Below, in pieces: positions 10,120 to 62,966 of a stretch of 64,000 nt of DNA. How positions within the stretch are numbered: position 1 is the first letter of the stretch; each line of letters begins with the position of its first letter. The stretch is from a virus: positions 96,001 through 160,000 of the IMG/VR virus record IMGVR_UViG_3300045988_162176; one strand, given 5' to 3'. The position numbers and the translations under genes were made by a program. The notes under the pieces are model-generated. The model did not search any database and was not told the DNA's origin. It saw only the letters and a list, made by a program, of their open reading frames with translations.

Positions 10120-10385
10120 TTCTTTTCCTCTTCTTTCCAGAAAGGATAATTGTCTCTCTTATTACAAGACTTTTCATACTTGCAAGAAAGTTCACATCCA
10201 TAAACCATATAATGATTATTACAATGTTTACAAACAACTTGCCCATAAGGGTTGCTTAATTCTTCAAGCATTAATACAGCTTTCTTGCCATCTATCCCAT
10301 CAACACATTTTCTTTCATGTAAATAGCATTCATCTAAAGACTAAAATTCTTTGCCACACTTTTCACAACAATATTTAATTGTCAT
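10116..10385 (-). CDS. small C2H2-type zinc-finger protein (89 aa)
   Basis: MTIKYCCEKCGKEF[TAG]SLDECYLHERKC... is visible only when TAG 10341-10343 is read through. ATGA overlaps at both ends. Confidence 0.5.
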
Positions 10386-35874: not shown

Positions 35875-36894
35875 TTATTCTACTGTAATATTATTTTCAG
35901 TACAGTAATCTTTCAAATCATCGAGAATAAGTAAAAGCATATCCAATTGAGATTCATCGCAATCTTTTACACTCTTACCCTTTCCAAGATACTCTGCAAT
36001 AATCTTCTTATATTCCGTACTACCAGTGTTATGAATTGCCTTTACATAACTACCGATTTCAGCAATAAGCTCATCAACGCTCTTCTTTTCATCTTCGGTT
36101 ACTTCGTTATCCTTAAAAAGATTAACCTCGTTATCAACAACTGTAGCACCGTGAGCCTTTTGTTCATCAATAGCCTTTGCCATATCATCACGCAATGCTT
36201 CATAAGTAAATGGAATGCATTCAGACATATAGGGGCTACGAGAACCAGCCTCAAGATGTTTGTTACCTCTCATCGTAAGCATAGAATGAACATTACCCTG
36301 TTCATCAGTTTCATAAGAAGCATAACCAGTTACGTCAACAAGACGAGAAACAACAAGGAATCCACGGTCAGGTACAGTAGGAATAGTCTTATCATACTTC
36401 TCGCCGTTTTCCTTAATCTGCTTAGTGGTGGCATGAGAAATACAAATCAAAGTATAACCAGCTTTAACAATCTCTTGAAAGAACTTATCATACTCACGAG
36501 ACAAAGCACGATAACCACGCATCTTTTCAGTCTCGTCAAGATAATCTACACCTTCTTTGTCTACGATATACTTTTCACAAAGGTCGTAGGCAATATCAAT
36601 AGTATCAACAATTACCGTTTTAAAGATTGTTTCTCTATTTTCCTTTTCAGCCGCTTCTGCATCTTTAAGCAACTGCTTCTTTACTTCAAGAGCTTCTTTC
36701 CAAGTGTTAATTGGCTGTGCAATAATGCCATCCAAGAAACCATAACCCTTTTCAAAGCCTAGCAAAATAGGCTTGGGGAATTTACAAGCGTTTGTAGTTT
36801 TGCCACTTTTTCTTTCTCCATAAATAAGAAAGCTCTTACCGCTAAGGTCACGAGTGACCACATTAGGCTTAATGCTAAAAATATCAATACCCAT
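35875..36894 (-). CDS. AAA_24/Sak4-like RecA-fold ATPase
   Basis: Walker A IYGERKSGKTT and Walker B VIVDTID. ATG with RBS AAAAGGAGAC. Confidence 0.65.
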   Translation of the reverse strand: MGIDIFSIKPNVVTRDLSGKSFLIYGERKSGKTTNACKFPKPILLGFEKGYGFLDGIIAQPINTWKEALEVKKQLLKDAEAAEKENRETIFKTVIVDTIDIAYDLCEKYIVDKEGVDYLDETEKMRGYRALSREYDKFFQEIVKAGYTLICISHATTKQIKENGEKYDKTIPTVPDRGFLVVSRLVDVTGYASYETDEQGNVHSMLTMRGNKHLEAGSRSPYMSECIPFTYEALRDDMAKAIDEQKAHGATVVDNEVNLFKDNEVTEDEKKSVDELIAEIGSYVKAIHNTGSTEYKKIIAEYLGKGKSVKDCDESQLDMLLLILDDLKDYCTENNITVE

Positions 36895-38113: not shown

Positions 38114-38164
38114 TTTACTATCTCCTAATTATTTAAAAAATCAACCTACCTTGGTTGTGAATAA

Positions 38165-38193
38165 AATATAGCATAGTTTTTTCATCTTGTCAA
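38165..38193 (-). promoter_or_regulatory. sigma-70/sigma-A-type promoter at the head of the replication region
   Basis: Minus strand: TTGACA (38193-38188), 17 nt, TATATT (38170-38165). Confidence 0.7.
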
Positions 38194-38238
38194 GCATTTC
38201 TAAAAAATTTTTTCTTGAGGGCTCCCAAGTAATTCATC

Positions 38239-39189
38239 TTATCCTTCCCATTCAGAAAGAGGCTTTAGCGTTATATAATCTAAACCCGTAAGTTCATCAA
38301 TTATTTTTTTACAATCAGTGTAAACGATTTGTGGATAAGTTGTTAAACTGTCCCAACTACCTTTATAATTGCTTTTACAAAATTCTTTCGATATTTTTAT
38401 ATCTTCATTCACAGGATGTAAAAAAACACAATTTCCCGAATAATATTTTGTATTATCTCCATCTTTATAACTATCCCCTTTTGTCCAAACAGAACCATTT
38501 TGTATTTCCTTTACACTGGCTGAAAAAATTATCGTTTTATATTTTCCAGCTCCTAATTGACTATCATCTGTCACCCCTGCAAAAATTCCATTTCCCGTTA
38601 TTGTTTGCTCTTGTCTATCACCATTATATTTCCAATATGTTTCTATTCCACAAACATTTGGCGGTAACTCTTCTATATCAAGTACATCAATGTTTTTTAA
38701 ACTGAAAGCTATAGAGGATTTCTTTGCATATTCATATTCTTGGTATGAATGTACATTCAAATAAAAACAATTTCTGCCATTTGAAGTAATTAATCTACTA
38801 CCAGTAACTCCATACCCCGAACTTCCTGCTGTATATTTCATCACAGACCCATCTGGTTTTGTAAAAGTCGCAATATCATCATTAAATTCTAATTTAATTC
38901 CAATCGCCTTAAATGCCTCAACCAAAAATTGTTCCCCCGGCTCACCCGAGCCGATATAGTGTTGTAAAGCACTTGAATAATACGCATCTCGTTTTGCAAG
39001 TGCAACAGCATTTACATCCATAGCATGAATAAAACCGTTAAATGATTCTTCGTTAACTATAATAGAACTATCCAATAATTTATAAAAAAAATCGTATGTA
39101 TATGCCCTGTCATAATTATTTCCCATTGATACCATTCTTTGTAATAATCGGACCAAAATATATTTGTATTGTCCAGAAGTGTAAGACAT
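38239..39189 (-). CDS. hypothetical protein (316 aa), translationally coupled to uppS
   Basis: Uninterrupted ORF with a TAATG overlap with uppS. Contains no TAG codons. Confidence 0.55.
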   Translation of the reverse strand: MSYTSGQYKYILVRLLQRMVSMGNNYDRAYTYDFFYKLLDSSIIVNEESFNGFIHAMDVNAVALAKRDAYYSSALQHYIGSGEPGEQFLVEAFKAIGIKLEFNDDIATFTKPDGSVMKYTAGSSGYGVTGSRLITSNGRNCFYLNVHSYQEYEYAKKSSIAFSLKNIDVLDIEELPPNVCGIETYWKYNGDRQEQTITGNGIFAGVTDDSQLGAGKYKTIIFSASVKEIQNGSVWTKGDSYKDGDNTKYYSGNCVFLHPVNEDIKISKEFCKSNYKGSWDSLTTYPQIVYTDCKKIIDELTGLDYITLKPLSEWEG

Positions 39190-39848
39190 TAAGATACACC
39201 CCCATATTTTCTTTTTATACCCTGAAATGTTTTAACTGCGTGCTTAAATTCCCCAATAGATAAATCTGGAAATAAAGTATCTGTGAAATAAAGTTCAGAA
39301 TAAACAGATTGCCATAATAAGAAGTTGGACATACGATGATATCCACCAGTCCTGATAATTAAATCTGGTTCGGGAAGATTTTGATACAAAGCAGCAGTAA
39401 TCTCATCTTCTGTTCTCGCTCCCTTAGCAATAGCATCAACAATCTCCATTCGACCAGAGTAATTACAACATAGATTCAATATCATACCATCACAATCTTT
39501 CGTCTCATTTTGAATTAAATCCATTTTAGACAAATTTTCTTTTGGAACTCTCTCTTTCGTTCCTGATATTAAAACACGAATATTGTTTTGTTTAAATTCT
39601 TCATATCTATCAAAATATTTGTTTGCCATTTCAAATAATTTATCAACTTCCTCCTTGGGGCGATTCCAATTTTCCCATGAAAAGCAGTAAACAGATAACA
39701 CAGGGATATTTAATCCTACACACCAATGCGTCATATCCTCCAACTTTTTCAGACCTTGCTCATGCCCTGCGGAACGTTCTAAGCCACGTTTTTCCGCCCA
39801 ACGTCCATTCCCATCTGCGATAACCGCAACGTGTTTTAATTGATTCAT
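39189..39848 (-). CDS. uppS: undecaprenyl-diphosphate synthase (cis-prenyltransferase)
   Basis: Collinear with E. coli UppS along its full length: HVAVIADGNGRWA, FSWENWNRP, IRTGGYHRMSNFLLWQSVYSELYFTD, RKYGG. RBS AAGGGAGGAAG. Confidence 0.9.
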   Translation of the reverse strand: MNQLKHVAVIADGNGRWAEKRGLERSAGHEQGLKKLEDMTHWCVGLNIPVLSVYCFSWENWNRPKEEVDKLFEMANKYFDRYEEFKQNNIRVLISGTKERVPKENLSKMDLIQNETKDCDGMILNLCCNYSGRMEIVDAIAKGARTEDEITAALYQNLPEPDLIIRTGGYHRMSNFLLWQSVYSELYFTDTLFPDLSIGEFKHAVKTFQGIKRKYGGVS

Positions 39849-39863
39849 AGTCTTCCTCCCTTG

Positions 39864-40859
39864 TTATTCCGCTGCCGTCTTAGGAAATGTTACTTGAACA
39901 ATCCCACTGTTTGCCTGATTTGTAATTGTTGTTGCACCATTAAGAGTAAAGAAATTTTCAGGTACGCCGTCAAGCTTGTATCCCCTTTTTGGGGTAAGAG
40001 TAATAGTGGCAGAATAGCTTGTATTTGCTTTGAAACTACTGTCTGCTGGGTTCCAAACAACAGTTGCATCATATTGCTCATTTTCATTTGTTTTCTTAAC
40101 AGCAACCTCCCCTTTAACTGGCGCTTTAATTCCAAGTATATCATTTTGAGTAACAGTTACTAATATATCACACTCATCAAGTCCGTAAAGTGCTATAGTT
40201 ATATCATTCTTGGGAACATCAACACAAGAAATATAAATCGTTGTATATCCTGCAATATTCTTTTTTGTGTCAGGCGCTACATAGTTGATATTAGGCAACG
40301 TTAAAGCAGAATCTATAACTTGCTGAGTATTAACATAACTATCATTGTTTTTTGGTAGGCCTATTTGTACCCCATATTCCCCTGGTTTACTTCCATTTAC
40401 TTTTAATACATAAGTATGTCCGTTTTCAACTGCGTCCCAATTAGTAAGGACAAAATCAAGGGGTTCTCCAACAACATAAATGATTTCTGAAGGCCGTGGT
40501 AAAGAACCTCCATCACCATTACTAATCCTATAATTACTAGGAGCAATATTTTTAAATGTTGTTTCATGTTTTGCTGTAACCCAGCAATTATTAAAACTTC
40601 CTGTTTTAAGCATTATTTCAACAGAATCTCCTTCTTTTAACTCAAAAGGTGTTTGATTTTGAATCCTTGTAAATTTAGATTCTTTCTCCCGAGGTAGCAT
40701 TACATCCACAGTACCATCACTATTTACATTTGCAACAACTGCGCTTTCTATTTTTGGAGAGGTCTTTTTTATTTCTTGTTTTACGCATAAAACAATTCTA
40801 CGCAGCATTTCATCTGCATATTCATCATAGTTGTCGTTAAATTCATTATTTTCATTCAT
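39864..40859 (-). CDS. tail/baseplate protein with C-terminal Ig-like repeat domains (possible receptor-binding or spike-associated protein)
   Basis: The position is in the tail module. The N-terminal small beta-barrel-like segment is DGTVDVMLP..GDSVEIML. C-terminal ..YSATITLTPKRGYKLDGVPENFFTLNGA..VQVTFPKT resembles bacterial Ig-like surface repeats. There are no TAG codons. Confidence 0.45.
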   Translation of the reverse strand: MNENNEFNDNYDEYADEMLRRIVLCVKQEIKKTSPKIESAVVANVNSDGTVDVMLPREKESKFTRIQNQTPFELKEGDSVEIMLKTGSFNNCWVTAKHETTFKNIAPSNYRISNGDGGSLPRPSEIIYVVGEPLDFVLTNWDAVENGHTYVLKVNGSKPGEYGVQIGLPKNNDSYVNTQQVIDSALTLPNINYVAPDTKKNIAGYTTIYISCVDVPKNDITIALYGLDECDILVTVTQNDILGIKAPVKGEVAVKKTNENEQYDATVVWNPADSSFKANTSYSATITLTPKRGYKLDGVPENFFTLNGATTITNQANSGIVQVTFPKTAAE

Positions 40860-40863
40860 ATAT

Positions 40864-42090
40864 TTATTTTTCTCCTTGACTTTCCTTTTGACTTGTACTA
40901 ACAGGTAAATCAGAAGTATTACAACAACTTAAACTTATCTACCCATTTTCGGCAGTATAAGAAATAGAAGTTATAAGTAGTTTTTCTCGTTTTAACTAAA
41001 GAAAACCATCTTCTACCTCACATAAATTATTTACTGTTAAAATTGGATTGAAACTTACAGTCATAGAAAAAGAAACCCCAACAAAACTAGCCTATCTTAA
41101 ATAATAATTTGCCAAATTCCTTGCTAAATCTTCATTCCAAATCTAAGAAGATGTATATGGAGCATCCATCCTTCTACCAATTCTTTCGACACAAATTGGA
41201 GATGCAGGGTTATTATTTTCAACAATAGCAGCACAAATAGAAGAATCTATACCATCACCAACAACCTTAACACAATTAATAACATTTTCGTTTTGATATT
41301 GTAAATTCATATTATGCAAATCTTGACCTATCTCTTGATATGTCCAAATAATAGGTTTTGTTGAATCGTCTACAGTTTCATTTAATGGATAAAAACACAA
41401 ATTACCAACTGTATTATAATAATATTCTGCCGATAGCTATGTTGCCAAAGATTCAATTATTACACTTAAATTCTCCCGCTATTCTGCCCTAATGGTTTGT
41501 TGAGTTTTCATCCGAACAAACGAAGGGTCGAAAATAGGTTCTTTATAATCTAATATATAACCATTTCCTTGTGCAAAATTAAGAACGCCATTTACAGCAT
41601 CTATTATATCACTGCCAAGTTTAACTTCATACGCAGTTTCTAAAGTTCCTGTCTTTCCTTCAAAAATTGCGTATTTATCAGACAATTGAAGTTGAACGGT
41701 CTTATTAGCATCCCCTCTGGATAAATCTATTTCTCCCATTATATAAACCCGTTTGGGAAACCAAATTATTTGCCGTTCATATTCTATTCCCACATCAAAA
41801 CTAAACCTAGTATTAATCCATAACCCGTTCATATTAGGAGTATATTGACCTTTATCATTTATTAAAGTAACGCCAATACTTCTTCTCTAACCATTCTAAT
41901 AGTTTTCAGTGTAATTTAAACCATTAAGAACAATATCTTTTTCTGGTATAATATACTATATTTGTTCATCAGGGGTTAAAACAGATAATCTAAAACGAGG
42001 TTTAACAACAGGTCTTTCTAATATTTTTTTTAATACATAAAAAGGAATTGCATTCTCTTCTCTTAAAAGAATATCACCAAAAATACTCAT
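40864..42090 (-). CDS. tail/baseplate structural protein (408 aa after TAG read-through)
   Basis: ATG 42088-42090 with RBS AAAGGAGATTGCA. Track fragments 41479..41832 and 41143..41400 are in one frame, joined by nine TAGs (for example 41956, 41479, 41143, 40939). The stop is TAA at 40864-40866. Confidence 0.6.
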
Positions 42091-42101
42091 TGCAATCTCC
42101 T

Positions 42102-43109
42102 TTATCTATCACTAGAAACAATACGAATTTTATCTATATCTATCGCTTCCTACCACTCAAAAGAAACAACAGTCTACATTAAATTGCTCTACATATTTAT
42201 TCCAGCAGTCGGGTTAGATACAATCTAAATAATCCATGCATTTCCCTTGTAATCTTTAAGTAGCTTCAAATTACCATTTCGGACAAAATTTTTCCAAGAT
42301 TCATATTTTTCTACTTCCCTAGAATATTTATTCTTCTTATTAATACGTTCAGTATATCCTTCTACTTCTTTAGCCTTTACAAAAGTCTATTCTTTTTTAG
42401 GAATTAATTCACCTTCTATATATTCACTAATATCTCCCAAACAACAAGACATACTACCACTAATATAATTTTTCTTTCCATAAGAAAATTTAGGAAATTG
42501 TCCTAAAGTGTCCCAACTAGTAGTGTTTAAATTCTATACCAAATCTCCATTATCTAAATTATAAGCAAGTTTCCAAACAGAGCCACTTTTCTCATATAAG
42601 CCCTCTTCTTCCGTTTCTTGTATATCACATATTGTCCAAAAATCCCATTTAGTAGATGCATAAGCTGGAGAATAAGTACCATCTTCGTTTGTAAAATTAT
42701 CTTCGTATATTTTGTAACTTCCTACTCCTTGACGATAAGCTATTAAATAATGATAGAAAGCATTAGCTTTTACTCCATAATCTATCATAGAATAGTTACC
42801 ATGCATATCACACAAATAAGTATAAAATTTATCATCTGGCTCTTTTCTATATACAGAAAATACCCGTTTAGTTTGAGGAAAAGACTAAAAATAATAAGCT
42901 AAAATCTAAGTGCCAGTTCCCTAATCCTTTAAATTGAAATTATTATAAAGAATTAAATCAGAAGATAGAGGAGAAAGATAAGGGTTAATTTTTAATTTAT
43001 CTTCTATTTCTTTGCGAATTGTATTAGGAGATTTATTAATGTCTGTTCCAACCCCAGTATCACGCACTTCAAGCCGTGATGCCATATAAATATAACTACT
43101 TATATTCAT
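42102..43109 (-). CDS. tail/baseplate structural protein (335 aa after TAG read-through)
   Basis: ATG 43107-43109 with RBS AAAGGAGAG. Fragments 42921..43109 and 42534..42815 are in frame, with nine TAGs. The stop is TAA at 42102-42104. Confidence 0.6.
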
Positions 43110-43124
43110 TTAACTCTCCTTTCT

Positions 43125-45533
43125 TTACTGGTCAGTCAAAACGATATTACTTAAAACAGGATTCTATTCTTTACTGTTATCAACAGTTAAACTAAAATCA
43201 AACCATTTCTAAGCAATTAAAGTTAAATTAGTCTGTCTGGCTGCGTAAGCATTTGGCATCCAAATAAAATCTTCTTCTACCTTATTTTTAGTAACTTTGT
43301 CATCTGGCCCCCATCTAAAATTTTCAATCTAAGGATTATTCTCTTGTGCTTCTGTTAAAGAAGGGTCGATAACAATATTTAAAATGTTACCACTTTCATC
43401 TCTATAATCTCCTCCTTCATCTAAATACATATACTCTGTATCAACCTAAAGAATCCAATCTCCATTACCGTCTTCATTAATAATATATTTATATTCTCCA
43501 ATATAATAATTTGTCGGCTCTTTCCAAGCGGGCGCAAATACTATATCTTTAGTTAAAATATAAATAATATCCCTATTCATGTATTCTGCTTCTTCCTTAA
43601 ACTCTTTAACCAACTCATATTTTTTTTGTTTTTCTCCAAGCCCGTTTACTATTGGAGTTCCATCCTCGTTTGTTTTATATTTGTATTGTAAAGCGAACCC
43701 TATTTTACTAGATACCTCAATGCCAGAACTAGTCAACAAATCTTCTAAATCATAATAATCAGAAGTTCCTCCATTAAAACAATGTAAAGGAATAGAACTA
43801 TTGTTTTTAAAAATTCTTATTTTTAAAGCATTAGAATTTTTACGGATTATTTTATTTTCAGTATCAACTGCAAACATGTCTAATCCACCTACTTTTACTG
43901 TATATAGGTCTCCTCCTAATGTAATAACTCCCTCTGTCCCAGATGGTAAAGGAATAAAATTATTTTCAGATTTTAAGGTATATGCTCTATAACTAAGATT
44001 GTTGTAACTATCTAAAATCAAATCATCCTAAATAGTTACTTCACCTGTATCTTTATTGTAATATAAAAGACGTTTCCTAGTATCAGTTAAAGTTTCGTCA
44101 GTAAAAATAGATAAATAAATCTCTCGTCTCTTTAATCCCGCTTCTGTTAAAGAAGTAGAAGAACCTATCTCTTGTTTGTTGAGTTTATCATAGTAAACAT
44201 AATGATTAAAATCCATTACATAAGTATTTAATTTTGATTCTAAAACAATTTTTGCAGAAGGAACATTATATTCTTTCAATTCAAAATAAATCATTTCTCC
44301 ATTTTCATCTACCAAAGGGGTGTTTTCATTAACATACAAGCTCAATAAAACTCCATTAGGATGAGTATTTATTGCTTCAGTTAAATATTGATTTGGCTAA
44401 ACTGTATATAAAGTAGAATACAATTCATTATATAAAACATCATCAAACTCATGTAAATATAATTCTGTATAATTTGAATGAGCCACTTCCATCAATGTTT
44501 TTAATTCATTCCCCTAAATATCATTAAAAAAGCCAATTTTGTTAGGAGTTTCAGAATTAACATATGGGAATCTAAATTTTGTAAAAAAAGAAAAAACCTG
44601 TGGAAATTGAATCGGTGTATTTTTTATATCTGTAAGTTGTGTATAATTTAATATTTTACCTTCAGTTGTATCAAGATAATAATATTCTGAATCATTACTT
44701 AATTTCACATCAGAAGAAGTTACTGTTTTTTCTTCTCCTTTGTCTGTAGAAGTTACATAAACAGAGCCAATAGATTCAAGTTTAATTCCCTATTCTTCAC
44801 ATATTAATTGAGTACTTAAAGGAATAGTTGATGTATATATTCTATATTCTACATAAAAAAGCTTTTCGTTAAAAAAATAATTTCCATATTTGTCACAAAT
44901 TGACAACTTTACTTTGTAAAATTTATTTGCATCTAATCCTTTAAAATCCCATGCAAAAGAATAATTATACAAATCTGAAGATTCAGCAATTAAAATTTCA
45001 TTATTATAACTATCCACCTAATATAAATAATAATGATAATATTTTGCTTCTACATTATCTTCACTAATCCATTCTCCAATAAAGGCTATATCTCTCCAAG
45101 GAGCAGGAACAGAACTATCTATCTCCACAAAATCTACATTTTCATCTTCTAATTCCCTAAAATCTTTATATTTTATTTTTATAGTGGGAGTGGTTCGAGC
45201 ATAAAAAAGACCGTTTGGGATAGAATCCATAAAATCTGTAAACACTGTATAATTACTTTGGGGTACAATAATATCTTGTACTTCACCATTACTTTTAGCA
45301 TCAATAGTGCAATTGTTTTTTAATAACCACTAAGTATTATCTAATTTATTAAAAGTAATATCACTTTTTTTACCAACAACATACTAATCATAATCACTTA
45401 TTTTCTAATTAATATTCAAACGGACTCCATTATCATAAACTATCTAATCTTGATTATTTTTATCAGATTTAATATTAATATTTGGCTAAATAAACAATTG
45501 ATGGTCAGAATCTCCGTTCCAATAAGAGGTCAT
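43125..45533 (-). CDS. large tail structural protein (802 aa after TAG read-through)
   Basis: Six track fragments (45018..45245, 44790..45017, 44514..44708, 44028..44345, 43446..44021 and flanks) share one frame with 14 in-frame TAGs and no TAA or TGA. The ATG at 45531-45533 overlaps an upstream TGA (ATGA). The stop is TAA at 43125-43127. Confidence 0.6.
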
Positions 45534-45578
45534 AATTTTAAAACTGTCATTAGTCACACCTGTGCCACCAATAATCCT

Positions 45579-46577
45579 ATCAACAGTTGATTCGTATTTT
45601 TTTTCTGTAAGGGATTCTTCACTTTTTTCCCAAAGCCTGTATTTTTCTCCTTGCTTTGGAATAGAATCTAAAGCTTCCTATAATCTTATTTCACCAGTTG
45701 ATTGCCCATAACCGATAATTTTTTTTGCCTTATCAGAAGTAGAAGTTTCTCCTATCGAAATATAATCGCCAAGAGAAATATCATCATTTGGTTCAACATA
45801 AAAAGAAGTGTTAGTGTGCTAATCAGAAACAGAATATAATGTAAAAGGTTTTCCATTTTTATAATTATAAGTGAATTTTTCAGTTAATTCTAACTTAACA
45901 ATATCTTTATCCAAACCCAAATCCGTATAAACCCAATTTATTTGTCTTCTTTCTTTATGAGGCCATATTTTAGGGTAATCAAGATTGTCTTTGTTTGGTA
46001 AAATTAAAGGCATCATTAAATCTTCTTTGTTCTAAGAGGTAATTTCTATCCATTTGTCATATTTTAACAAATCTTTTACTTTTTGTTTTTTTTCTTCTGA
46101 CTCCAAACCACTCAAATCCACCCAAATAACAGAAGTGGTAGAACCAACCGTAAATCCAGAGCATACTTGTGTAATTGGTAGTTCATCTTTTTCTCTCGGG
46201 GAATGATTTTCGTACATTCTAATATTCCACTAATAATTTTTACCGTTTTTAAATTCTTGCCCCTTTTCTGTGATACAGGTTAAACTACTTTCTTTTTTAC
46301 TAACTTCTTTAAAAGTAATTATATCATTTTTCCGACTACCACTCGATGAAACCTTTGCGTTTAATGTTAACTATTCTTTGTTTTGAACTTCGACCCCCAA
46401 ATTCTAAGAATTCCGAATTAAAATATCAGCAGCCCCATCCCGAGATATAATATTCACTGAATATGCCTTAACACTATTTCCAAGAGTGTTAGCCTACGCC
46501 TAAAATTTGTTTCCTTCGGCAGATAAAATATCAATTTCATTTAGGTTCGGCAAAAGCTGTGAAGGTTTATAAATCAT
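45579..46577 (-). CDS. tail protein directly downstream of the tape-measure gene (distal-tail-protein position), 332 aa or more
   Basis: ATG 46575-46577 with RBS GGAAAGGAG. Eight in-frame TAGs. The zero frame ends at TGA 45579-45581, just after an A9 run. A +1 shift on that run would extend the protein to TGA 45530-45532. Confidence 0.55.
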
Positions 46578-46660
46578 GTTTTTGTAACTCCTTTCCAATG
46601 TTTTTTAAGAGGTGAGGTGTGGCGAGTTTTATTCCACACCACACCCCTTTATCAATTTTA

Positions 46661-46689
46661 ATTTTAAACTATTTTTACTTAATTGTCAA
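46661..46689 (-). promoter_or_regulatory. sigma-70/sigma-A-type promoter between the tape-measure gene and the distal tail genes
   Basis: Minus strand: TTGACA (46689-46684), 17 nt, TAAAAT (46666-46661). Confidence 0.55.
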
Positions 46690-46713
46690 CAACTTTCTCA
46701 AACAATTTTTAAT

Positions 46714-47775
46714 TTATCCTTTTATTTTTTTGGTTACATTCCATCTAGACCCCATTGCAGTTGTTACTCCGCTCCAGAACTTTGCAGGGTCATTAACTCC
46801 TTCAAGTACAACGTCACCCTGAACAATATATTGTGTACCACAATTATTATCTGTTCCAGTACGTTTCATTTCAGGTAATCTTGTAGTTGCCATATTACGT
46901 AATAAATTGTAAGCTTGGTCACTGTTTAAAACATATTCAGGTTTGGAAACTGAACCGTGTAACATTGCAAGACCTGTATAAGTTACTGGACCTTGTTCAA
47001 TACCTGTGGAATAACTATTATTACCCCAGTATTCAGCTCCTGTTGCTTTGTTTCCCTTCTTTTTCCATTCTTTTTCTATTTCTGCATTACTTTTATATCT
47101 GAACTGCTTACCAGAACTATCCAACCGCATCTAAGCACCATTTAAATTCATATCGTGACGAAGCATTTTTTCTTCTCTGTATTTAGCCCATTTATCAAAT
47201 TCTTCTTGGGTTTTAGCATTAACCATTAATTTAGCATAATCTACTCCATCCTTCAAATCTCCAAAGTCTTTCATATTTGGAATATATTTATCCGGTTTAA
47301 GTTCGTCAACCATTGTATCGTTTTTACCCATAGCATCAGATGCATTTAAAAGAGACACTCTTTCTCTGAGAAGTTCAGCAAGTTTAATATTAGCTTCTTT
47401 ATAAGGAGTTAACAAATTATCTTGGAAAATAGTATTATAATTCTAATAATTGTTAGCAAGGTCAGAATTAAATTTCTCCATATCCGTAGTTAACAATTCT
47501 TTAATTTTATCTTCAGAATCTACTCCCATAAGAGCCTTGAGAATACGCTCGTTTTCCATGCGTTCGTATTCTTTATAGTCCCAATCAAGCTATTCAAGAT
47601 ATTTATCCCACGCATCAATCTTCTTTTGAATTTTATCTACTTCTGCATCTTTGGTCTTGCCCAAATCATTAATTTTATCTTCACGATAAAAAGAATCTAA
47701 ATCTTTTTGAGCTTGTTTTTGTTTGGCCCGATTGGATTCGTATACCCATCCTATCGAATCTGTTACTTTTGTGAC
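46714..47775 (-). CDS. giant tape-measure-like protein, exon 3 (C-terminal about 353 aa)
   Basis: Track fragments 47590..47778, 47131..47415 and 46714..47130 are in one frame, joined by TAGs at 47590, 47443 and 47131. This exon carries the only TAA of the whole gene, at 46714-46716. Confidence 0.7.
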
Positions 47776-49002
47776 CATAATTAAAATTATGGCGGCAAGG
47801 CATTTCTACCTTGCTCTCGTGTTTCATTTTTAGATTATAGCACGAGTCCAGACTGTATATTATATTATTTAATAATATTATTTAAATAATACGATAGCTG
47901 AACTCAATATGTTACCATATTAAGTGTGACAGTCGTTCGAGTTTCTGTTAAAATTATTAAAAAAATCATCCAAGATTTCAGTAAGCCTTTTCTTATCCTT
48001 GTAAGAAATTTCTAAGAGACAAATTCCTTTTTGCTAACAATATTCTTTCTTTATTTTATCCCTCTTTTGTCCATCTTCAAATCTTTTTGCAGCTTTCTAT
48101 TTAGATTCTTCTGTAGGAGTGTAAGAAAAATCTACTGGTTTATAATGTTGTTCTCCCTAATATTCTATACATACATTATAGTCTGACAAATAAAAATCAA
48201 ACGGAAGAAGCTATTTATATCTACAATCATCAAAACGTTTCTATGGAGTAAAATTTACATTGTGGTCTTCTAAGTAAGTATAAATAATACTTTCTCCGAT
48301 AGACAATTTACAAAAATGACATCCTGTTTGTAAAGTTACAAATTTATCTGCTTTTGTAGTAGTTAGTCTTCCACAAACTTTGCAGCGACAAGTTACATCT
48401 TCTTTTATACCATTATATTCTCCAACTACTTCCAAGGAAGGGTTAATTTTTGTTAACTTTTCTTCATACCATTTTTTATCTTTAATAAAACGTTCCCTCA
48501 ATTTTCTTTTCTTGCATTCTGGACAACCTTCTCCTCTTTTTATTTTATTTGGTCTTGCAGAAAAAATGTGCCGATATTTACAAACAAATTCTGTTTTTTC
48601 GGTATCGTTCTTATATTTACCATAAAGTTTAATTTCTTTATCAGCAATATCTTCTATAAAATCTTCTTCTGTATAACATTTTAATCTGCATCCACAACTT
48701 TTAGCATGTAAAAAAGCATACGCATAAGAAATTCTATCAGGTTTATTTGGATGATTTAAACAATGAAAAATTACAAGTTGCTAATTTTTATCGTTTCTTT
48801 TTGTACCAACAATTTCAACATCTAAAAATTTAGCTTGTTCTAAATATTTATCTGTTAATTCCCATTCAAAATTATTCTCTTCCATTTTATCCTCCTTTCT
48901 TTAATAATATATAATAATTTTAACAGTCTTACTTCGGTCTCGACCTTCTCAGGCTATTAACCGATATAGCTATCTTTTACGAGGGCATTGGTGTTCACCC
49001 TC
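47776..49002 (-). mobile_element. group-I-like intron (about 1.23 kb) in the tape-measure gene carrying an endonuclease ORF
   Basis: The coding frame degenerates after ..KEKERVYR (CGU|) and resumes at |GUC ACA (VTKVTDSIGWVYESN) after a G. The flanks are structured and GC-richer, with R/S-like strings (GAGUUCAGCUAUCG, AAUAUACAGUCUGG). Confidence 0.6.
47920..48885 (-). CDS. intron-encoded endonuclease: N-terminal Cys-rich zinc-ribbon modules plus a C-terminal PD-(D/E)XK (Vsr/DUF559-like) domain
   Basis: Has its own RBS AGGAGGATAAA plus ATG 48883-48885. CxxC pairs (CPECKK, CRCKVCG, CHFC). C-terminal FDFYLSDYNVCIEY[TAG]GEQHY motif. There are six in-frame TAGs (48781, 48241, 48211, 48157, 48097, 48034). 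The stop is TAA at 47920-47922. Confidence 0.6.
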
Positions 49003-52000
49003 ACGGTATACTCTCTCTTTTTCTTTAGCGGCATTCTTTTTCGCGGCAAGCAAATCTTCAAGCTGTATCTAACGTTCAAGCTCATCATTAATATCCTCAA
49101 GAGGTTTAACTTCTTTTTCATAAGCCTCTTCAATAGCATCTATATCTTTTTGCAGTTCATCTTTATAAAGATTAACTCTATAAACAATGGCATCATATTG
49201 CTTCTCTTGAAGTTCAATTAAATCTTTTTGCTAGTCTATTTTAGCTTCTTGAATAGATACAATAGCATTATTTAAACCATTAACAAGCTCTTTTATTTGC
49301 TCATCAGTATATCTGGAGGTATCACTCAAAGCCTATTTATATGTTTCCACTTGCTTTTGCAATAAATCTATCTTACTATTATAATAATTATTGATATCAT
49401 CAGATTTTATCCATTCTTTTGGAGCAGATTTTTCTAAAGTACTTAATTTATCTTCAAGTTCCTCAATCTAATCTTTAAATTTCTCAAAAATAAGTTCTTC
49501 TTTTTTCTAAATAAGGCTAAACAAACTTGATATACTATCTCGATAAGCCTGAGAATAATCATTGTTTCCTTGAGGAGCAAAAGCCTAAGCTTCAGTTAAA
49601 GACATACCATCTTTCATATATGCTTCAACTGCCTTATTAAAATTATATTCAATAGATTCCTTTGTAGCTTCAATTTGTTTTTCAATTGCTTCAATAGAAG
49701 AATTTAAAACAGAATCATACAAAGATTCATTGGTATAAGCAGTGCCTTTAACATACTGCATCTGAATATCATTTAACTCTAATTGCCATTCAGCTACTTT
49801 TTTACGTAAATCAATTTCATCTTGAATTAAACTATTAAGTTCTTTTTGACGTTCAAGTTTTTCTTCATAGGTATCAGCAGTTTTCAAGTGAGCTTTTTTT
49901 ATTTCTATTAATGCTTGGATAGATGCTCCATATAATTCAAGAATCTTATAATTATCTTCAACTTCTTCATCATCAAGATTATTAATAGCTTTTTGATTCT
50001 CAATGTAGTTCTTTTCTGCATCTAATCTCTCTTCTTCAGTGAGATTGGCATTTTGCATTAAACCTTCATAATATCCAGCTAATTTTTCGAGGCTTGCTCT
50101 CTTCTTTTCAAAATACGCCGTGTATCCAGTAGGTTGTAAAGTATTTTCATCAAATACTTTCATTGCTTCCCATTCTTTGTCAATAAGAGAATCATAAGCT
50201 TTGAGAAGGTCAAGAATTCCATCTTTAGCATCTTTTGCAGATTTGCCCAAATCTTTCATCGGGTTTCTATAAGCTTTTTTCCAACTGTCTTGTGTCAATT
50301 TTCCAGAATCGAGGATATCCTAAATCTTATAACCTAAATGTTCCCATGTAGCAATTTCGCCTTCGTCAAAATGTAATTGTCCATCTTCTCCAATATGAGT
50401 TTTACCAGTCCATTTCCGACTTTTTGCATCATAAGTCATACCACCAGATAACTTATCAATTTGCTCCTGCAAGGTATTCATTTTTTCTATTCTTTGTTCT
50501 TCATTAAGAGTAATTGTCTTGGTTTCAACTTTTCCCTCATATTTTTTAGCTTTCTAATTACCAAATTTAACTTTGCTTTTAGCTTCTTTATATTGTTCAG
50601 GAGTAATTTCTCCCATTTTTGCTTGATTATAAAGAGCCCACATCCGAGCAACATATTCAAGATTATTAGCTTGATTAATTAAAGCATCGCTTTCTTTTTG
50701 CAAAGCATCAATTTTTAGATTTGCAGAAGTAACCGTTGCATCAGCCACTTCTTGATAAGTATTACCAGCCGCTAATTGTGCATATTGATTTTGAAGAGAA
50801 GCTAAAGTATTTTTCTTTTCGGCAATCGTTGCCTATATACTAGCCTAAACAGCAAGTAGTCTTGCCCTTGCCATTGTCTCCTCAGCATCAGATTTTAATT
50901 TGATAGAATCTCCCTCAAAATCTAAAACATTAATATAATCTTCATTCGCTGCTAAAAGGTCTAAAGTAGTTTCTAAACTCAAATGACCAGAAGCATTTTG
51001 TTCTTCTCTAGCAGAAGACAACTAATCGAAAATTTCATCAACACTCTCTAAAGCCTCTTTTAATTCAGAAAAAGTGTTAATAATACCATCTTCACCAAAA
51101 TCCATTCCAGCAAAAAGATTTTCAAGGTCATATGACACAGATTTTATATCATAGTTTAAATGGTCTTTTATAGGGGCAAGATTAAGTTCTTCTTTTACGC
51201 CATTATTAATAGCCTCATTAAAATGCTTTCCAAAATAAGTTCCTGCTTCCTCAAAATCTAATTGCATAGCATCATCTATTATTTTTTGAGAATTTAGGAC
51301 GGAATTCCAAGTCTCTTCGTCATAGTCAGAAAAAGTTTCTGCAATAGCAGCCTTGTTATCAAACCTAGCCCCACTTCGCCACATCTAAGCCGCTTTACGA
51401 TAAAGAGCAGTATTCCCATTTTCATCTAACGAATCACGTTCAGTCATTCGTTGTGACGCCTATTGTCTTAAATAGGAATCTTTACCAGAATAATACTCAC
51501 CATTAACCATATTCATCATGGCTTGAGGATTATTAATAATATTACTACCCATCCAACCATTTTGAGCAAGACTAAACGCTCTCTTATATTGGTCTTGAGT
51601 CATTCCATTTACAGCATTGGCGAATTCTTCGGAAACCATTTTTGTTATGGTGTTAGAATCGAGTCCCATAGCTTCCAACAACTCATCCAAAGGAGTAGAA
51701 ACATGAACGGATTCAACGCCCTTAAATTCAGCATCAATCTTATAACCCATGCTTATAAGCATAGTTTTACCATCAGCAGAAAGCTCTCCATTTTCATCCA
51801 TAAGAGCCTCTACCAATTCTTTTCTATACTTTTCTTTCCACTCAGCAGATTCACCAACAGTTTTAAACTCCCCAGTACCATAGTAAACATCTACTATTGC
51901 TGGATTGTTTTTAACTATTTCTGTCATTTCTTGAGAAATAGATAAAATCTGAGTTTTAAAATCATCCATGTCAGTATAATCAATATCTTCTCCACGAATC

Positions 52001-54570
52001 TTTACCATGGCATTAATAAATGTTTGTTCATCTTCATCCATAGCTTTAATTGTAGAACTAAGTCCAGAGAATTTATATCCAACATCAACTATACCATCAG
52101 CAGTTGCCGCATAATCAATTAAAGCATCTGTATATTCCAGTATGTCTTGTTTAGAGTCATGCACTACTTTTTGATATGCTTCTTGTTCTTTCTTTAACTC
52201 TTGCAATTCTGAGTAGGCTTTCTCATACTCTTCTGTTCCTTTAGTTAAAGAATTAACATAGTCTTCTTGTTCTTTTACTTTGGTATTTAACCCTTTTGTT
52301 GTAGCATCAAAACCAGTGCCGGTAATTGTCGTTTCATCACCTAATTTACCCCCTGCTTTGGAAATATTTTTAACCGCATCATCCCATTGTTGACCAAAAA
52401 CACTTAAATCAGAATCAGTAGGATTTAACCATTGATGAACCCAATTAAAGAACCCTCCACCATTATCAAAGAATTTCGCAGTTGCAGTCTCTTTTAAAGA
52501 TTGTACCATTTTATCAACCGCTTCTGTTACTTCTCCAACTTTGCCAGCAAGCCCATCAGGACCAACTAATTTATTTCCATATTCATCTGTACGAACAACT
52601 AACTCAGGGAAAGCTTCTGCTAATTTATTAGACAAATCTAAAAATTGTTGATATTCTTCGCTTGTAAGAGAAATATTATTACCTAAGTAATCTACTCCTT
52701 TGGCAAGTTTATCATATTCAACAGTATTGGCAGAAGAAGACAAAGCATTGCTATAAGCTTCAGAAGCTTCATTATAAGCTTCCTGTAAATTTTTCTTAGA
52801 ATTTTCAATGCCCTGTGCAATTCCTGCAACTACTGCTGCACCAACCATTATTCCTAACCCAGCTAAAGAAGAAGGCTTTATTGTAGTTGTAAATTCTTTC
52901 CATGCGCCACTCAACCGCGCACTCAATTGCTCACTTGCTTCTCCACCTAACATTTTAGTGAGTTCTTTATTAAATAAAAACTTCTTTCTAGCTTTTACAA
53001 GAGCATTGCCAAACTCGTCTCCAAATTTAGAAAGGGTTTTACCACCAAGAGAACCTCCCAAAAGCATTCCAATTGTTTGTCCTCCTGTACCTCCAAGGTT
53101 TTTACCTATTGAAGACCCAATCCAAGTTCCTCCAAGCATACCAAGTAATCCACCAATACCAGAAGCAACCATTCCAACACCCGTTTGATTAGAAGACTAA
53201 CCAACATTAACACCCATCTAATTAAAAGTACGTCTATAATTAGGGTCGGCGTTTCTACCACTTAATGCTCCACGGGCAAAGAAATTTTTCTTCCGAGCGT
53301 CATATTCAGCTTCTCTTGCTCTATATTGCTCTTCTGTCATACCCATTTCTGCTATTGCTTTTCTCTTAGCTTGTTCGTATAATTCAGAAGCATTTTGCTC
53401 ATCTTTATACTAATCTTTCAAATTTCTTATGGCTACAACATCTTCATACCTTGCATTGTATTCTTCTTGTAAGACTTTTAAAGTTTCAGCTTTTAAACTG
53501 GAAATTAATTTAGTTTTTGTTGTATCATCTAACAATGCTACAGTTTCATCAGAAATATTACCATTTAATAACTCTTCGGCAATTCGTTTTCTATCAGTTG
53601 TTTCTTGGGCTAAGAAAGTGGATTGAATAATTTTATAAGTGGCTTTTTCTTCATCTGACAACGCCGCCGCTGCACGATTCAAAGCACTACTATAAACTTC
53701 TCCAGCAACACTATCCATGCTTGCAGAAGTTTCTGCCCACATTCTACTCCAAGCAGCTTTTGCATATTCTGCGTCAGCACTTTGATTGGCTGTGCCACTG
53801 AACACCTAACCCATATTACCTAAGAATCCAGCAACTTTTCCTGCTCCACCAACAACGCCAGACACAAGTGTTCCTTTTCCTACAATTCCAGCAGCAGCAA
53901 GTAAAGCAGCCCCAAATAATGTCAAATTGTCGGCTACAGCAGCCAAGCCATTATAAACAGTTTCAAGTACGCCACTACTATTAAGCATTAAAGCCCACTT
54001 TTCTAAGCTAGCAGTTAAACGCTTTTGAGCAGCTTCAACTCCACTTGTATAAGCTTCCATCTTCTTAGCAGCAGTACCAGCAGATTCAGCAGCAATCTTT
54101 TCATACTTAGCTACCAAATCCATGTTCTCCATAAGGATTAAGAAGTTTTCACGCTGTCTCGTACCAGCCACAGCAGTAGCAATACCAGACTTTTGAACAT
54201 CACTAAAGGATGTCCATTTTTCAGAAATATCATCAATGATATCATCAACATCTCTGAAATTATCAATAGAATCTCTAACACTAATACCAACAGCTTTTAA
54301 TACCTGTTCAATTTCATTCAGGTTAGAGAAATCTTCTTGGGATAACCCCTCTTGTTCAGCTTCCTCTTGGGAAACTTCAAATTTTGTTGCGGCAATTTTT
54401 TGGAATCTTGAGTACAATGTCTTGAAGCTCTCACCAACAGTTTCAGGTGTCTTCTGAGAAACTTCCGAAACTGTCGTAATCATTGCCATGTATCTATCCA
54501 AACTGGAACCCGCCAATTGCGCTGAGACGTTCGCACGACTCATTGCAGCAGCTAAGTCACCAGCACTAAT
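49003..54570 (-). CDS. giant tape-measure-like protein, exon 2 (about 1,856 codons)
   Basis: Track fragments 53806..54543, 53410..53805, 51460..53172, 51022..51384, 50554..50748 and 49585..50298 are all in one frame. They are connected only by TAG codons (17 counted) with no TAA or TGA. A Gly-rich hydrophobic segment lies around 52.9-53.2 kb, followed by long coiled-coil-like stretches. Confidence 0.7.
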
Positions 54571-54895
54571 CTGTTATGTTTAAATGATTCGCTAAATCAT
54601 TCGAGAAAATTCTCCTCATACTTTCATATGAGCACTGACTATATCTTCACCCTTATTATAAGGGGCGTACTTTTTCGGAAAATCAATCGCTTATTTCCCT
54701 ACTCCTTTTTAGGATAGTCGATGGACATTATTCTATTCAAATCTTCGCTGCTGATTATCTAATCTTTATATTTTTTTAGCATTCACATTTAAGTTTATTT
54801 CATCTTTATGTTGTAGCATATAAAGCTCTAAAGATTTCCCAGCAATTAAATACGTTTTCACTCACATATTACTATGTTTGCGACCTATTTTATTA
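54571..54895 (-). mobile_element. ORF-less group I intron (325 nt) in the tape-measure core
   Basis: The classical P, Q, R and S elements occur in the correct order on the minus strand: AAUUGCUGGGAAA (54847-54835), AAUCAGCAGCG (54756-54746), CCAUCGACUAUCC (54724-54712) and GAAGAUAUAGUCAG (54648-54635). The 5' exon ends in U (GCU|) and the intron ends in G (CAG|). Splicing joins ..LTAVDMAAA to ISAGDLAAAMSRANV.. in frame. Confidence 0.85.
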
Positions 54896-57800
54896 AGCCG
54901 CCGCCATATCAACCGCAGTTAATTTATCAACAACTTCTCCCACTTCATCAACAGAAAGTTTCCAACCTTTAAGAACAGAAATTAAATATTCCGTAGCTTT
55001 GGCGGAATCAATCATACCAAGAACGCTAAGATTCATGGAATTTTCAACAAGCTGAGAAGCTTCTTGTCCTTCGTAACCAGCACGAAGCCAATCGTTAGCT
55101 GCCGTGGCAACTTCTTCTGTACTCTTACCAACTTTACGAGCTAATGTATTAAAATCAAGCATCATGCTTTGAATCTCTTTATAGCTGTAACCACTTGCAA
55201 TCTGCAAGTCAACCATTACTGCATTAAGAGACTTAGCACTATTCATGATTTGATTAAACATATTTCTAACAGTCATTGCCAATTGATTAGCAATAACATC
55301 AATACTTACTAATCTTGCAAAACTGTTAGTAAACGTCTTTCCTATAGTTTCAAGAACACCTTTTTGCTCTCTATAAGTAGCATTAATTTTAGTAAGCTTA
55401 ACTTGATGTTGAGCTTGCAAATTAGCTTCCTGTTGTTCGAGCTTATTAATGGCTTCTTGACTATAGCCCATTTCTTTAAGTTCTTTAACTCTTTCTGCAT
55501 ATACAGTACCCTATTGCTTTAACAAATTCAATTGTTCACTTAAAGCGGTACGAATATTTTCCTGCTCAAGTTTTTCATATCCTGAAGAATTACTGACTTT
55601 TAAATCTGTTCTTTGAATCTCTTCTTGCAACTTCATCTGTTGCTTAAGATTATTAAGATAATCCTTAATATCTTTATTACCTTGAGAATTTTGGAAACCT
55701 GTATTCCTGTTCATTCTATCAGTAATAAATTGAGGTCTATTATTTAATTTTTCACCATTCTGATAGTAACCAGTGGTAGCAAATTGAGATTCAGCAAGAA
55801 TTTTATCCTGTTGAATACCTTGTCCTTTAGAGCCTCTTTCAAGACCTTCGGCAACAGTTGCCATAGAAGCAGCTTTACCCTTAGTTGTTTCAACAAAAGA
55901 TTGACCATCCTTTGTAAAGCTTCTAATAATTTGCACGAAAGAACGAGCAAAAGCTTCAACACGAGCTTCACCATCTTCAATAATAGCAGAAATATCTCCC
56001 GCCCCAGAGTCTTTATCAAAGCCTTCGAATCCGAGTTCAGCAACTCTTGTCTTCAAATCACTTGATAAACTATCAAAAGATTTACCTTCAGATTGAGCTT
56101 GCTTTAATTTTTCAACAACCTGACTGTATTCAGATTCAGCCATCCTAAGATAAGTACTTGCTTGTAAAACACGAGCGGCACGCATCCGTGGGTCATCTTC
56201 TCCACCACTGTTAGAGAATTTCCAGTCTGCAACAGTTACATCTGCGTATTTACCATTAACTTTTTGACCAAAAGTCAAAGCATCCGCAGTACCAGCAAAA
56301 GCACGATTACCAATAACTCCACCAAGCTTAAGCTCTTTGAGTGTGGAACTATTTAACGCACCAGATGTTCTTGCAGCATTAACAACATCACGGGCTCTAC
56401 CCTGTTGGCGTTGCAAATCTTCCGCTGTTACAGATAAACCAGCGCCTCCAAGTTGAGGCGATTTTCTAACTTCATCTATTAATTGCTCCATTAACTCATC
56501 AGTCATATTGTCGATGTTTTCAACAATAGCATGAGCAAATGTACCCAACGCAGAAGCTTTATTACCAGATTGAGTAGTATTCGGGAATTTACTGTAATCT
56601 TCATAAGGCGCAGTTGTCACTTGAGTAACAGACCTAAGATTTCCGCCCTCAGAAGAATAAGTCTTATCACCGACCTTCATAGTTCTGGAATGACCTTCAC
56701 CAAGTTCACTCACAACATCAGCCGCAATAAATTTAGCCCATTCGCCACTTGCGTCTTTCAAATTAGCCGCTTTATCAATAGAATTAGTCTGAGAAGCTGT
56801 TTGATTTGCTTGAGCAACAGGAGCATTTGCTTTTACTTCAGTAGCACCATTTACATCAATGTTACCAGTATTAACAATAACTTTACCATTCTGAGCATTA
56901 ACAACAACATTACCCTTAGCATTAATAACAGAACCTTCAACAGTTTCTTCTGTGCCATCTTCAGAAACTCTTACCCATTCGCCATTGTCATTAAGATAAG
57001 TCTTATCTTTTCTTAATTCACCATTAAAGGTGCGATAAGGGTCTAATGCTTTAGAATAATTAGTGGCGTCCTTAAGAGAAAGACCCATTGGTTTAAGATA
57101 AGCTTCAAAACTATTAAACGCTTCAATAAGATTTTCCATGGTCGCGCCCTTAAAGGATGCAAATTTACCATTCTCATCAACGGTAGCAATTCCCATCTTT
57201 GTAAGAGCATCAATCTAAGCTTTATCTCCACTTGCAATTATTTGAGAAGCAACAGTTTCAAACTGCTTACCGTCCATTATACTGCCAAGAACATTAAGGT
57301 CTTTAGCAATACTTAAGAAGCCCTTTTGGTCATCAGTATCAGCAAAACGTCCTTCATGAATTGCACTAACCAAATCTTTAACAGCTAATAAAGCTTGGTC
57401 TTCACTCATTCCTTCTTTGCCGATTAATCTTGCGTAAATCTTTTTAGAAGAAATCGCATCCTGTTCAAAAGATTCCATGGTGGCTCTAATAATAGCAGAT
57501 TGCACAGCAGAAGTTGCACCATTATTGTCGGCAAACCCTGTTTTGTACATAGCTTCTCTTGCTTTAGTGTCAGCATCAGAGAACAATCCGACGTTTTGGA
57601 ATGCCATTTTAGCCTGTTCAGATGCATCTTTATTTATCCATTTCTTAGATAAATTTTTAGCAATCGTATTCCAGCTATCATCTATATCGACTTTTTTATT
57701 TTGAGCTTTTTGCTTTTGAATCTGATTCATAATACTTGCAACAGTATCATTGTATTTTAAGATATAATCCTCTGCAAGTTTTTCATCTTCACCATATTGT

Positions 57801-62302: not shown

Positions 62303-62315
62303 GTATTATTCCTCC

Positions 62316-62966
62316 TTATTTTAATTGAATTCCATATTTTTTATAAATCATTGGCTTCAATTCAACCAAATACTATTTTTCATATTCTTGTTGAGCTCTA
62401 AAACGAGCTACTCTATAGGTTTCATCTATAGAAGGTAACGTACTTAAATCTATTCCTTGATTAATTGGATTAAAATTGTAATAATCCAATCTAACATCTG
62501 CAAGCACATCTTCTTGAGAATCTTCGTCCATTTTACCACCTGATGATAAAAAATCCTAATCGTCATCCTAAAAAAACTAATCAATAAATAATCCAGCAGC
62601 TTCGTCTTCACTTCTGAAATTCTTTACCGTGGATTCTGATACTGTATTTGGATTAAATTTTTTCTTTTCCCTATAGTTCTTATTGCTAAATTTGAACTTT
62701 GCCGTATTGTAGGTGCAATAAGGTGTAGCATCGCTATTTTGTCCAAAATACAAAGAAGACATTAAAGAATCTTCGTCATATAAATCTCCATAATAGTTAT
62801 CAAATACACTTTTAAACACACTTTTATATATTGCTGTATAACTATTTAACAATTCAATTTTAATTGCCATCACTCTACTTGGCAACATCTTTTTAGTTGC
62901 ATCTACAGTTTCTTTTATTTCTTTTTTTAATGCATTTGAAACTGCATTTGGTAACACTTGTTCCAT
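62316..62966 (-). CDS. hypothetical protein in the tail-assembly-chaperone position (216 aa after TAG read-through)
   Basis: ATG with RBS AAGGAGGTTAATAT. The track ORF stops at TAG 62577. The frame continues through TAGs at 62568, 62556 and 62370 to TAA at 62316-62318. Confidence 0.55.

Follow-up and report, generated by a model that had tools for sequence, protein, structure and literature searches.

A UppS-type prenyltransferase gene forms the middle of a mobile, fibre-linked gene cassette in phages of gut Clostridia

The window analyzed here is a stretch of 64,000 nucleotides from a virus (IMG/VR record IMGVR_UViG_3300045988_162176, positions 96,001 to 160,000). It contains a gene for a protein of the undecaprenyl-diphosphate synthase (UppS) type, which is followed directly by the gene for an orphan protein, here called C0, and preceded by the gene for a tail-fibre-like protein, here called C1. 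Comparison with other phage loci shows that the unit is a three-gene cassette, consisting of the conserved head of C1, UppS and C0, which is obligately linked and situated inside host-recognition genes. An even chance is given to the reading that UppS is an active carrier-lipid synthase, the middle gene of this mobile, fibre-linked cassette, and that it works together with C0. The coordinates of the features are summarized in Table 1.

The linkage was counted in 80 further metagenome loci, with the count for C0 limited to loci with at least 1 kb of flank. C0 is located directly after UppS in 71 of 71 metagenome loci, and a C1 core of about 100 aa precedes UppS in 72 of 74. UppS and C0 overlap (TAATG, ATGA) or are separated by no more than 3 nt in all 23 of 23 loci, and scans of IMG/VR with UppS and with the C0 profile return the same contigs. 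The neighbors of the cassette include lysis genes and proteins with Beta_helix, Laminin_G_3, CBM_5_12 and LRR_5 domains. In several phages UppS is flanked by structural fibre genes on both sides. An earlier note on this DNA had asked whether related phages carry the genes at the same locus; the triad was found at the same kind of site, inside fibre genes, across many phages. The note had also located UppS where the tail module ends and coupled it through TAATG to a 316-aa protein of unknown function. Both statements stand: the gene upstream of the cassette encodes a phrog_1887 tail protein, and the overlap was read directly on the minus strand, which the note had not named and which carries all genes of the window. 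The packing is head to tail: a gap of 4 nt precedes C1 and one of 15 nt separates it from UppS, after which comes the UppS/C0 overlap.

The cassette was found in the tail or lysis regions of very different phages. More than 120 protein clusters (90% level) of 217-222 aa are 70-99% identical to the UppS of the window. Nearly all of them originate in gut metagenomes, and one carries the name of a Caudoviricetes protein. The carriers, cited below by their L numbers, comprise hundreds of contigs from the human gut and the prophage of a cultured strain of Intestinimonas. Among them are PBSX/Mu-like myovirus prophages (L001 and L120, the latter with a serine recombinase), siphovirus-like temperate phages with integrases (L004, L102, L121), a contig of 129 kb (L119) and the lineage of the window itself, on contigs of up to 217 kb. 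The G+C content of the carriers ranges from 33 to 61%, and UppS is nonetheless 77-84% identical. No match to GenBank phages was obtained by megablast of 24 kb of the window or by tblastn of C0, nor was a close relative of UppS found among them. UppS, C0 and C1 have no match in PHROGs and no meaningful match in PADLOC. The earlier description of UppS as unusual phage cargo thus agrees with the missing PHROG match, the lack of a close relative in GenBank phages and the lack of a description in the literature searched.

The earlier note regarded UppS as complete with all catalytic blocks, which was confirmed by profile and residue comparisons. Residues 10-216 match positions 1-219 of the 219-position PF01255 profile (236 bits against a cut-off of 27; E=4e-70), and the uppS equivalog TIGR00055 is matched with 212.6 bits against a cut-off of 109.55. 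The species-specific NF0114xx equivalogs all score below their cut-offs for the UppS of the window. The motif ADGNGRWA occupies residues 11-18 and IRTGGYHRMSNFLLWQSVYSELYF residues 165-188; the SNFLLWQ..Y.ELYF block is kept. Identity to UppS of Escherichia coli is 39%. The UppS of the window has the same residues as the E. coli enzyme at the catalytic Asp and the allylic-diphosphate site (D26, G27, N28, G29, R30, R39 and H43) and at the isopentenyl diphosphate (IPP) site and catalytic loop (F70, S71, N74, W75, R77, R194, R200, S202 and E213). Among solved structures the closest relative is 3ugs, the enzyme of Campylobacter jejuni (E=1e-51); since that enzyme has 225 aa, the length of 219 aa is not a defect. 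In 121 clade members D12, N14, R16, R25 and H29 are invariant, and the residues of the IPP site and catalytic loop are invariant or present in 120 of 121. At the C-terminal RXG position the window has K214-Y-G216; of the same 121 members, 102 have K as the first residue, 16 have R and 3 have N; G216 and the preceding R213 are invariant. The ratio of nonsynonymous to synonymous substitution rates (dN/dS) of UppS is 0.03-0.18. Because the active site is invariant across the 121 members and dN/dS is this low, UppS is judged to be a working enzyme, not a relic: it is predicted to be catalytically competent, and it is under strong purifying selection. The residues of the tunnel floor (E. coli I62, V105, L137; window I48, I90, L/M122) are of the medium-chain type. 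Two substitutions, M25A and F89A in E. coli numbering (A11 and A75 in the window), are invariant in the phage clade and occur in 2% and 5% of cellular relatives, respectively. In the E. coli structures, M25 and F89 line the allylic-substrate pocket.

The relationships of UppS point to phages, not to a recent host donor. A phmmer search against 1.84 billion cluster representatives returned one divergent clade member at 61% identity, followed by a gap; the best sequences outside the clade are 46-49% identical and most are 37-46% identical. Among 185,579 species genomes (one each) only two close loci were found (77% and 76%). One lies in the tail/lysis region of a myovirus-like prophage of Intestinimonas massiliensis, and the other on an Oscillospiraceae contig of a metagenome-assembled genome (MAG), within a phage-like gene string. 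The housekeeping UppS encoded in Oscillospiraceae MAGs shares about 42% identity with that of the window, and in a neighbor-joining tree the phage UppS sequences form one clade. G+C content and G+C content at third codon positions (GC3) are 35.5% and 27% for UppS and 32% and 20% for C0; the window has 33% G+C and a typical GC3 of 17-27%, so that both genes equal the phage background.

Two explanations of the origin of these genes have little room beside these results. The earlier note had observed that UppS and C0 are free of TAG, unlike the adjacent late genes with 3-22 TAGs each, an observation that holds and extends to the C1 gene. It had regarded this as consistent with recent capture from a host. 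The capture of a host uppS as a free-standing metabolic gene, or moron, too recent to have gained TAG, would fit the difference from the neighboring late genes. It is nevertheless very improbable, since no cellular UppS exceeds 49% identity, the only close copies in genomes are phage-borne, G+C and GC3 match the phage and the clade is phage-borne and monophyletic; the TAG poverty reaches into C1, and C0 of the relative L118 already contains a sense TAG. The other explanation, an assembly chimera of the cassette with host DNA, has a negligible probability. L118, which was assembled independently from a different sample, follows the window collinearly from 49847 to 34413 at 93% identity, across both borders of the cassette; composition is uniform, and the same gene order is repeated in many contigs.

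Exchange of the cassette between phages is apparent from two pairs of genomes. L102 and L119 have little in common except the cassette, in which they share 86-89% nucleotide identity; in L119 the cassette has a G+C content of 47-53% and its flanks 33-43%. The tail genes of the window and L118 are 96-97% identical, and identity dips to 85-92% over positions 38750-40550 of the window. The dip begins where the C1 head begins, continues through UppS and reaches into C0, of which it covers the N-terminal half; it points to a recent exchange of alleles of the cassette core. Taken together, these comparisons show the cassette as a block that has evidently moved among unrelated temperate and large phages of gut Clostridia.

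The coding of TAG bears on both the history and the timing of the cassette. Once TAG, which occurs 84 times in frame, is read as a sense codon (code 15 type), long late genes emerge from the fragmented region 40864..62966. TAG is found as a stop in no gene of the window. No tRNA, including suppressor tRNA, was detected within the window. The genes for replication and nucleotide metabolism below position 38000 contain few TAGs. The probability of finding no TAG in the 27 Gln codons of UppS, C0 and C1 is about 9e-4, assuming the share of TAG among Gln codons seen in the late genes (23%). The C0 gene of L118 contains one in-frame TAG, which is aligned precisely to a Gln of the window and of other homologues; this alignment confirms that TAG is read as Gln in the phage lineage of the window. 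A distant tail-protein homologue was uninformative in this respect, as its residues opposite 9 TAGs were of 8 different kinds. Read-through of TAG has been associated with late genes (Borges et al., bioRxiv 10.1101/2021.08.26.457843). With a sense TAG, C0 of L118 must be translated while TAG is read through, which argues for a late expression of the cassette. Because the cassette moves as a block between phages, its TAG poverty is best read as a mark of import from phages with the standard code; TAG would now be starting to accumulate in the cassette. Internal promoters or terminators for an expression of its own were considered and dismissed, as such sites are no more frequent in the region than expected from shuffled sequence.

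C1 is predicted to be built like a tail fibre. Its N-terminal ~124 aa are particular to the phage lineage of the window, and the C-terminal ~207 aa (~39864..40487) consist of the conserved head domain and an Ig-like repeat that travel with UppS. In an alignment of 13 homologues the N-termini differ by phage type, and the common C-terminal part consists of a core, YVVG..IFGLE, and then one or two Ig-like repeats; in L104 the protein is reduced to the bare core (129 aa) in front of UppS. The Ig-like repeat is also found in SLH/Big_3 surface proteins. In the AlphaFold2 (AF2) model, residues 132-331 are modelled with confidence as beta-rich domains.

The partner protein C0 is conserved at both ends. 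Residues 1-60 and the C-terminal LSEWEG are highly conserved, with a variable, indel-rich middle; W314 and G316 are invariant in an alignment of 22 sequences, and most full-length homologues end in the EWEG tail. The dN/dS of C0 is 0.09-0.43. In L104 (contig of 157 kb, 8660-10459) the C0 domain is part of a protein of at least 600 aa that continues into DUF285/PARCEL (BspA-like) surface-binding repeats. Neither C0 nor C1 has a match in Pfam (E<=10), NCBIfam, PHROGs, PADLOC or PDB sequence profiles. The AF2 model of C0 has a predicted local distance difference test (pLDDT) value of 77.5 and a predicted template modelling (pTM) score of 0.80; Foldseek searches of the C0 and C1 models against PDB and BFVD gave nothing at E<=0.001. 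An enzyme-like fold or motif was not seen in C0 by Foldseek, by Pfam at E<=10 or with PDB profiles. The best BFVD match, a phage leucine-rich repeat (LRR) protein (E=7.6e-3, TM 0.17), is not credible. Several candidate identities of C0 were rejected. A degenerate BspA-type LRR in the C-terminal half received a probability of 0.14% in an hhalign comparison with the LRR_5 protein of L119. A ComX-like prenylation site at the C-terminal Trp (..SEWEG) is unsupported, the window being without a trans-prenyltransferase. A second, unrelated protein of the window (35101-35802, minus strand) ends in EEWEG and so has its last four residues in common with C0, which looks coincidental.

Some of the other phages carry additional isoprenoid genes. 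A trans-prenyl synthase of 256 aa is encoded beside the cassette in L102 and L119; both DDxxD motifs are intact and the best match is to the farnesyl diphosphate (FPP) synthase subfamily. In L102 it is joined by another cis-prenyltransferase, which shares only 39% identity with the first. These additions lie at 10021-11438 in L102 and at 11786-12556 in L119. In 14 of 47 loci, C0 is followed by the gene for a small membrane protein of the DUF5658 type. The presence of consecutive pathway steps in one place argues for real isoprenoid synthesis in the cell. In the window, tblastn detected no trans-prenyl synthase, C12 or DUF5658; UppS is the sole isoprenoid gene there.

Undecaprenyl phosphate is the scarce carrier for peptidoglycan, teichoic acids, capsules and wall polysaccharides, and is a drug target. 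In the proposed mechanism the cassette would be made late, together with the tail genes. In the infected cell, UppS would condense IPP of the host onto FPP and so produce a medium-chain polyprenyl diphosphate of the C55 type, which the host would dephosphorylate to the lipid carrier for peptidoglycan and wall polysaccharides. C0 would act with UppS, be it as an adaptor, as a regulator or by using the product. The aim would be to top up or redirect the scarce pool of carrier lipid, probably in connection with the envelope glycopolymer that is recognized by the fibre module. One option is that this offsets carrier lipid tied up as glycan-binding or glycan-cleaving fibre proteins accumulate; another is that the timing of wall failure comes under phage control. 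Several observations weigh against this proposal. Pure supply of the carrier explains neither the strict linkage of UppS to C0 and the C1 head nor the position within fibre genes. The addition of an FPP synthase is rare (1 of the 47 loci with enough flank). RXG reads KYG in most clade members, and M25A and F89A set the clade apart from nearly all cellular enzymes, so that primer or product could be non-canonical. Finally, C0 and C1 are without a recognizable fold or family, and the roles proposed for them are guesses.

Three other explanations were weighed. UppS might make a non-canonical isoprenoid, with another primer or chain length, that is bound, transferred or modified by C0 as part of a phage-specific lipid pathway. 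The clade-wide M25A and F89A, rare as they are in cellular relatives, would suit this, as would the obligate coupling to C0 and the trans-prenyl synthase and 39%-identical second cis-prenyltransferase that some phages own. It is considered unlikely, if worth keeping in mind, since UppS scores best against bona fide undecaprenyl-diphosphate synthases, passes the uppS equivalog cut-off and has a tunnel floor of the medium-chain type, and C0 lacks an enzyme-like fold or motif. A modest probability of similar kind is assigned to lysogenic conversion or superinfection exclusion, in which expression from the prophage or early in infection would provide more carrier lipid and thereby more, or different, surface polysaccharide, so that receptors are masked or tolerance to antibiotics directed at undecaprenyl diphosphate (Und-PP) or lipid II is raised. 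Many carriers are indeed temperate (integrases in L102 and L121, the serine recombinase of L120, the Intestinimonas prophage), the cassette lies near lysis genes and the attachment end, a common site of morons, and the three genes of the window can be translated without a TAG suppressor. Receptor-blocking genes are known to adjoin receptor-binding genes, as in llp/oad of phage T5, and the arrangement is analogous to that pair. Against conversion stand the tight packing with the late tail genes, the lack of a promoter signal above chance, the need for TAG read-through in C0 of L118, and the fact that no glycosyltransferase, flippase or phosphatase accompanies the cassette in the loci examined.

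The third explanation departs furthest from metabolism and is rated as rather improbable: UppS would not, or not only, be an enzyme, but would form the fibre tip together with the C1 head and C0, its pocket recognizing or carrying Und-PP or lipid II as a conserved secondary receptor. In a variant, UppS loads a polyprenyl lipid onto the fibre. The placement between structural fibre genes in several phages is what would be expected of a subunit, as are the coupling and the fixed order. UppS remains 77-84% identical while C0 and C1 drift to 35-46%, as if the ligand were invariant and the glycans variable, and the unit of recombination extends from the C1 head across UppS into C0, of which it includes the N-terminal half. 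The fusion of C0 to DUF285/PARCEL surface-binding repeats in one phage and the in-frame TAG of L118 C0, which points to late expression, fit as well. Such a device is, however, without precedent. The fully conserved IPP-binding and catalytic residues indicate catalysis in the cytoplasm, as do the FPP-synthase-like gene and the second cis-prenyltransferase that co-occur, and the substrates of UppS are lacking outside the cell.

The reading of UppS as a carrier-lipid synthase joins a known enzyme family to the known idea of phage metabolic genes; what is new is the conserved, mobile, fibre-linked arrangement with two orphan partners. The phage enzyme shares the family and the catalytic and substrate-binding residues with bacterial UppS/IspU (E. 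coli 1jp3, C. jejuni 3ugs), and its length is near the 225 aa of the Campylobacter enzyme. It differs in being 39-47% identical, in M25A/F89A, in KYG for RXG and in the fixed linkage to an orphan and a fibre domain. Genes of the PF01255 type are also present in two cultured phages, Streptomyces phage Gilgamesh (gp102) and Flavobacterium phage 6H. Both are 30-38% identical and without C0 or C1; the open reading frame of 6H is a fragment of 135 aa. Gilgamesh gp102 lies among membrane proteins and ParA, the 6H gene among hypothetical genes. These homologues are independent acquisitions.

Heteromeric cis-prenyltransferases (DHDDS/NgBR, Rer2/Nus1) also depend on an obligatory second subunit, as is proposed here for UppS and C0. 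In contrast to that system, in which NgBR and Nus1 have a degenerate cis-prenyltransferase fold and supply the RXG, the phage UppS keeps a (K/R)YG tail of its own. An assignment of C0 to this type of partner was rejected, as C0 has no PF01255 signal (E<=10) and no Foldseek or PDB-profile match to the fold. Tail-fibre cassettes with accessory genes are known, namely fibre plus chaperone or the T5 oad/llp pairs. They resemble the present cassette in the variable N-terminus, common C-terminal head, accessory genes and exchange as a block; here the accessory gene is instead a conserved lipid-biosynthesis enzyme, for which we know of no precedent in this position and the literature searched gave none.

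Benler et al. 2021 (PMC8008677) reported the ispD-family gene of the 'Flandersviridae' as the first indication of phages acting on isoprenoid metabolism. This gene is likewise a phage-borne enzyme of a host pathway for a limiting metabolite. It serves IPP synthesis and lies in the replication module, whereas UppS of the window represents the carrier-lipid step, lies in the tail-fibre region and is linked to two non-metabolic proteins. Apart from that remark on ispD, the literature search found no description of a phage UppS or prenyltransferase, and the manipulation of isoprenoid lipid metabolism by phages had been based on this single observation. Should the enzyme be active, phages of dominant gut Clostridia would rewire the carrier pool of the cell wall during infection or lysogeny, which would affect lysis timing, receptor display and antibiotic tolerance. 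If the protein is structural, the fibre module would be a new kind of receptor-binding device, built on the fold of a lipid-carrier-binding enzyme. The prophage of I. massiliensis, located at about 1.167-1.188 Mb of LR131147.1 in strain Marseille-P3064, provides a culturable system for either reading.

Table 1. Features of the cassette and its borders in the window
Feature	Position	Strand	Remarks
Upstream tail protein	40864..42090	-	phrog_1887 'tail protein', E=9e-26; 9 in-frame TAGs
C1, tail-fibre-like protein, 331 aa	39864..40859	-	Variable N-terminus and conserved core; TAG-free
UppS-type cis-prenyltransferase, 219 aa	39189..39848	-	PF01255 and TIGR00055; member of the phage-only clade
TAATG stop/start overlap of UppS and C0	39187..39191	-	TAA of UppS and ATG of C0 share base 39189
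C0, orphan protein, 316 aa	38239..39189	-	Open reading frame translationally coupled to UppS; directly 3' of UppS
Gap closing the tail/cassette gene string, before the replication-gene block	38114..38238	-	125 nt
Promoter-like site in the 125-nt gap	38193..38165	-	TTGACA-17-TATATT, 11/12 matches, TG extension; consensus match only
Terminator-like hairpin and T-run in the 125-nt gap	38157..38133	-	Consensus match only

Further observations concern other parts of the window. The giant tape-measure gene is interrupted at 54615-54905 (minus strand) by a group I intron, which matches Rfam RF00028 with 57.7 bits (gathering score 50; E=6e-14). The intron was detected in a local scan only and is absent from the gathering scan of the whole window. 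The upstream part of the tape-measure gene (62302..54893) ends in ...VDMAAA and the downstream part (54543..48949) resumes with ...DLAAAMSRANV. In L118 the gene is called as a single product of 4312 aa. Inside the tail module, between the tape-measure and the distal tail genes, lies a gene for an HNH/homing endonuclease (47920-48885, minus strand; phrog_559, E=6e-55), which contains six in-frame TAGs and therefore depends on the phage's own recoding. Beyond the cassette, a protein of 315 aa (36951-37898, minus strand) belongs to phrog_2367, with Pfam YorF assigned in a relative. Its C-terminus, DDDDDIPF, is an acidic tail typical of single-strand DNA-binding proteins, and its gene is situated just upstream of that for a Sak4-like annealing protein at 35875..36894.

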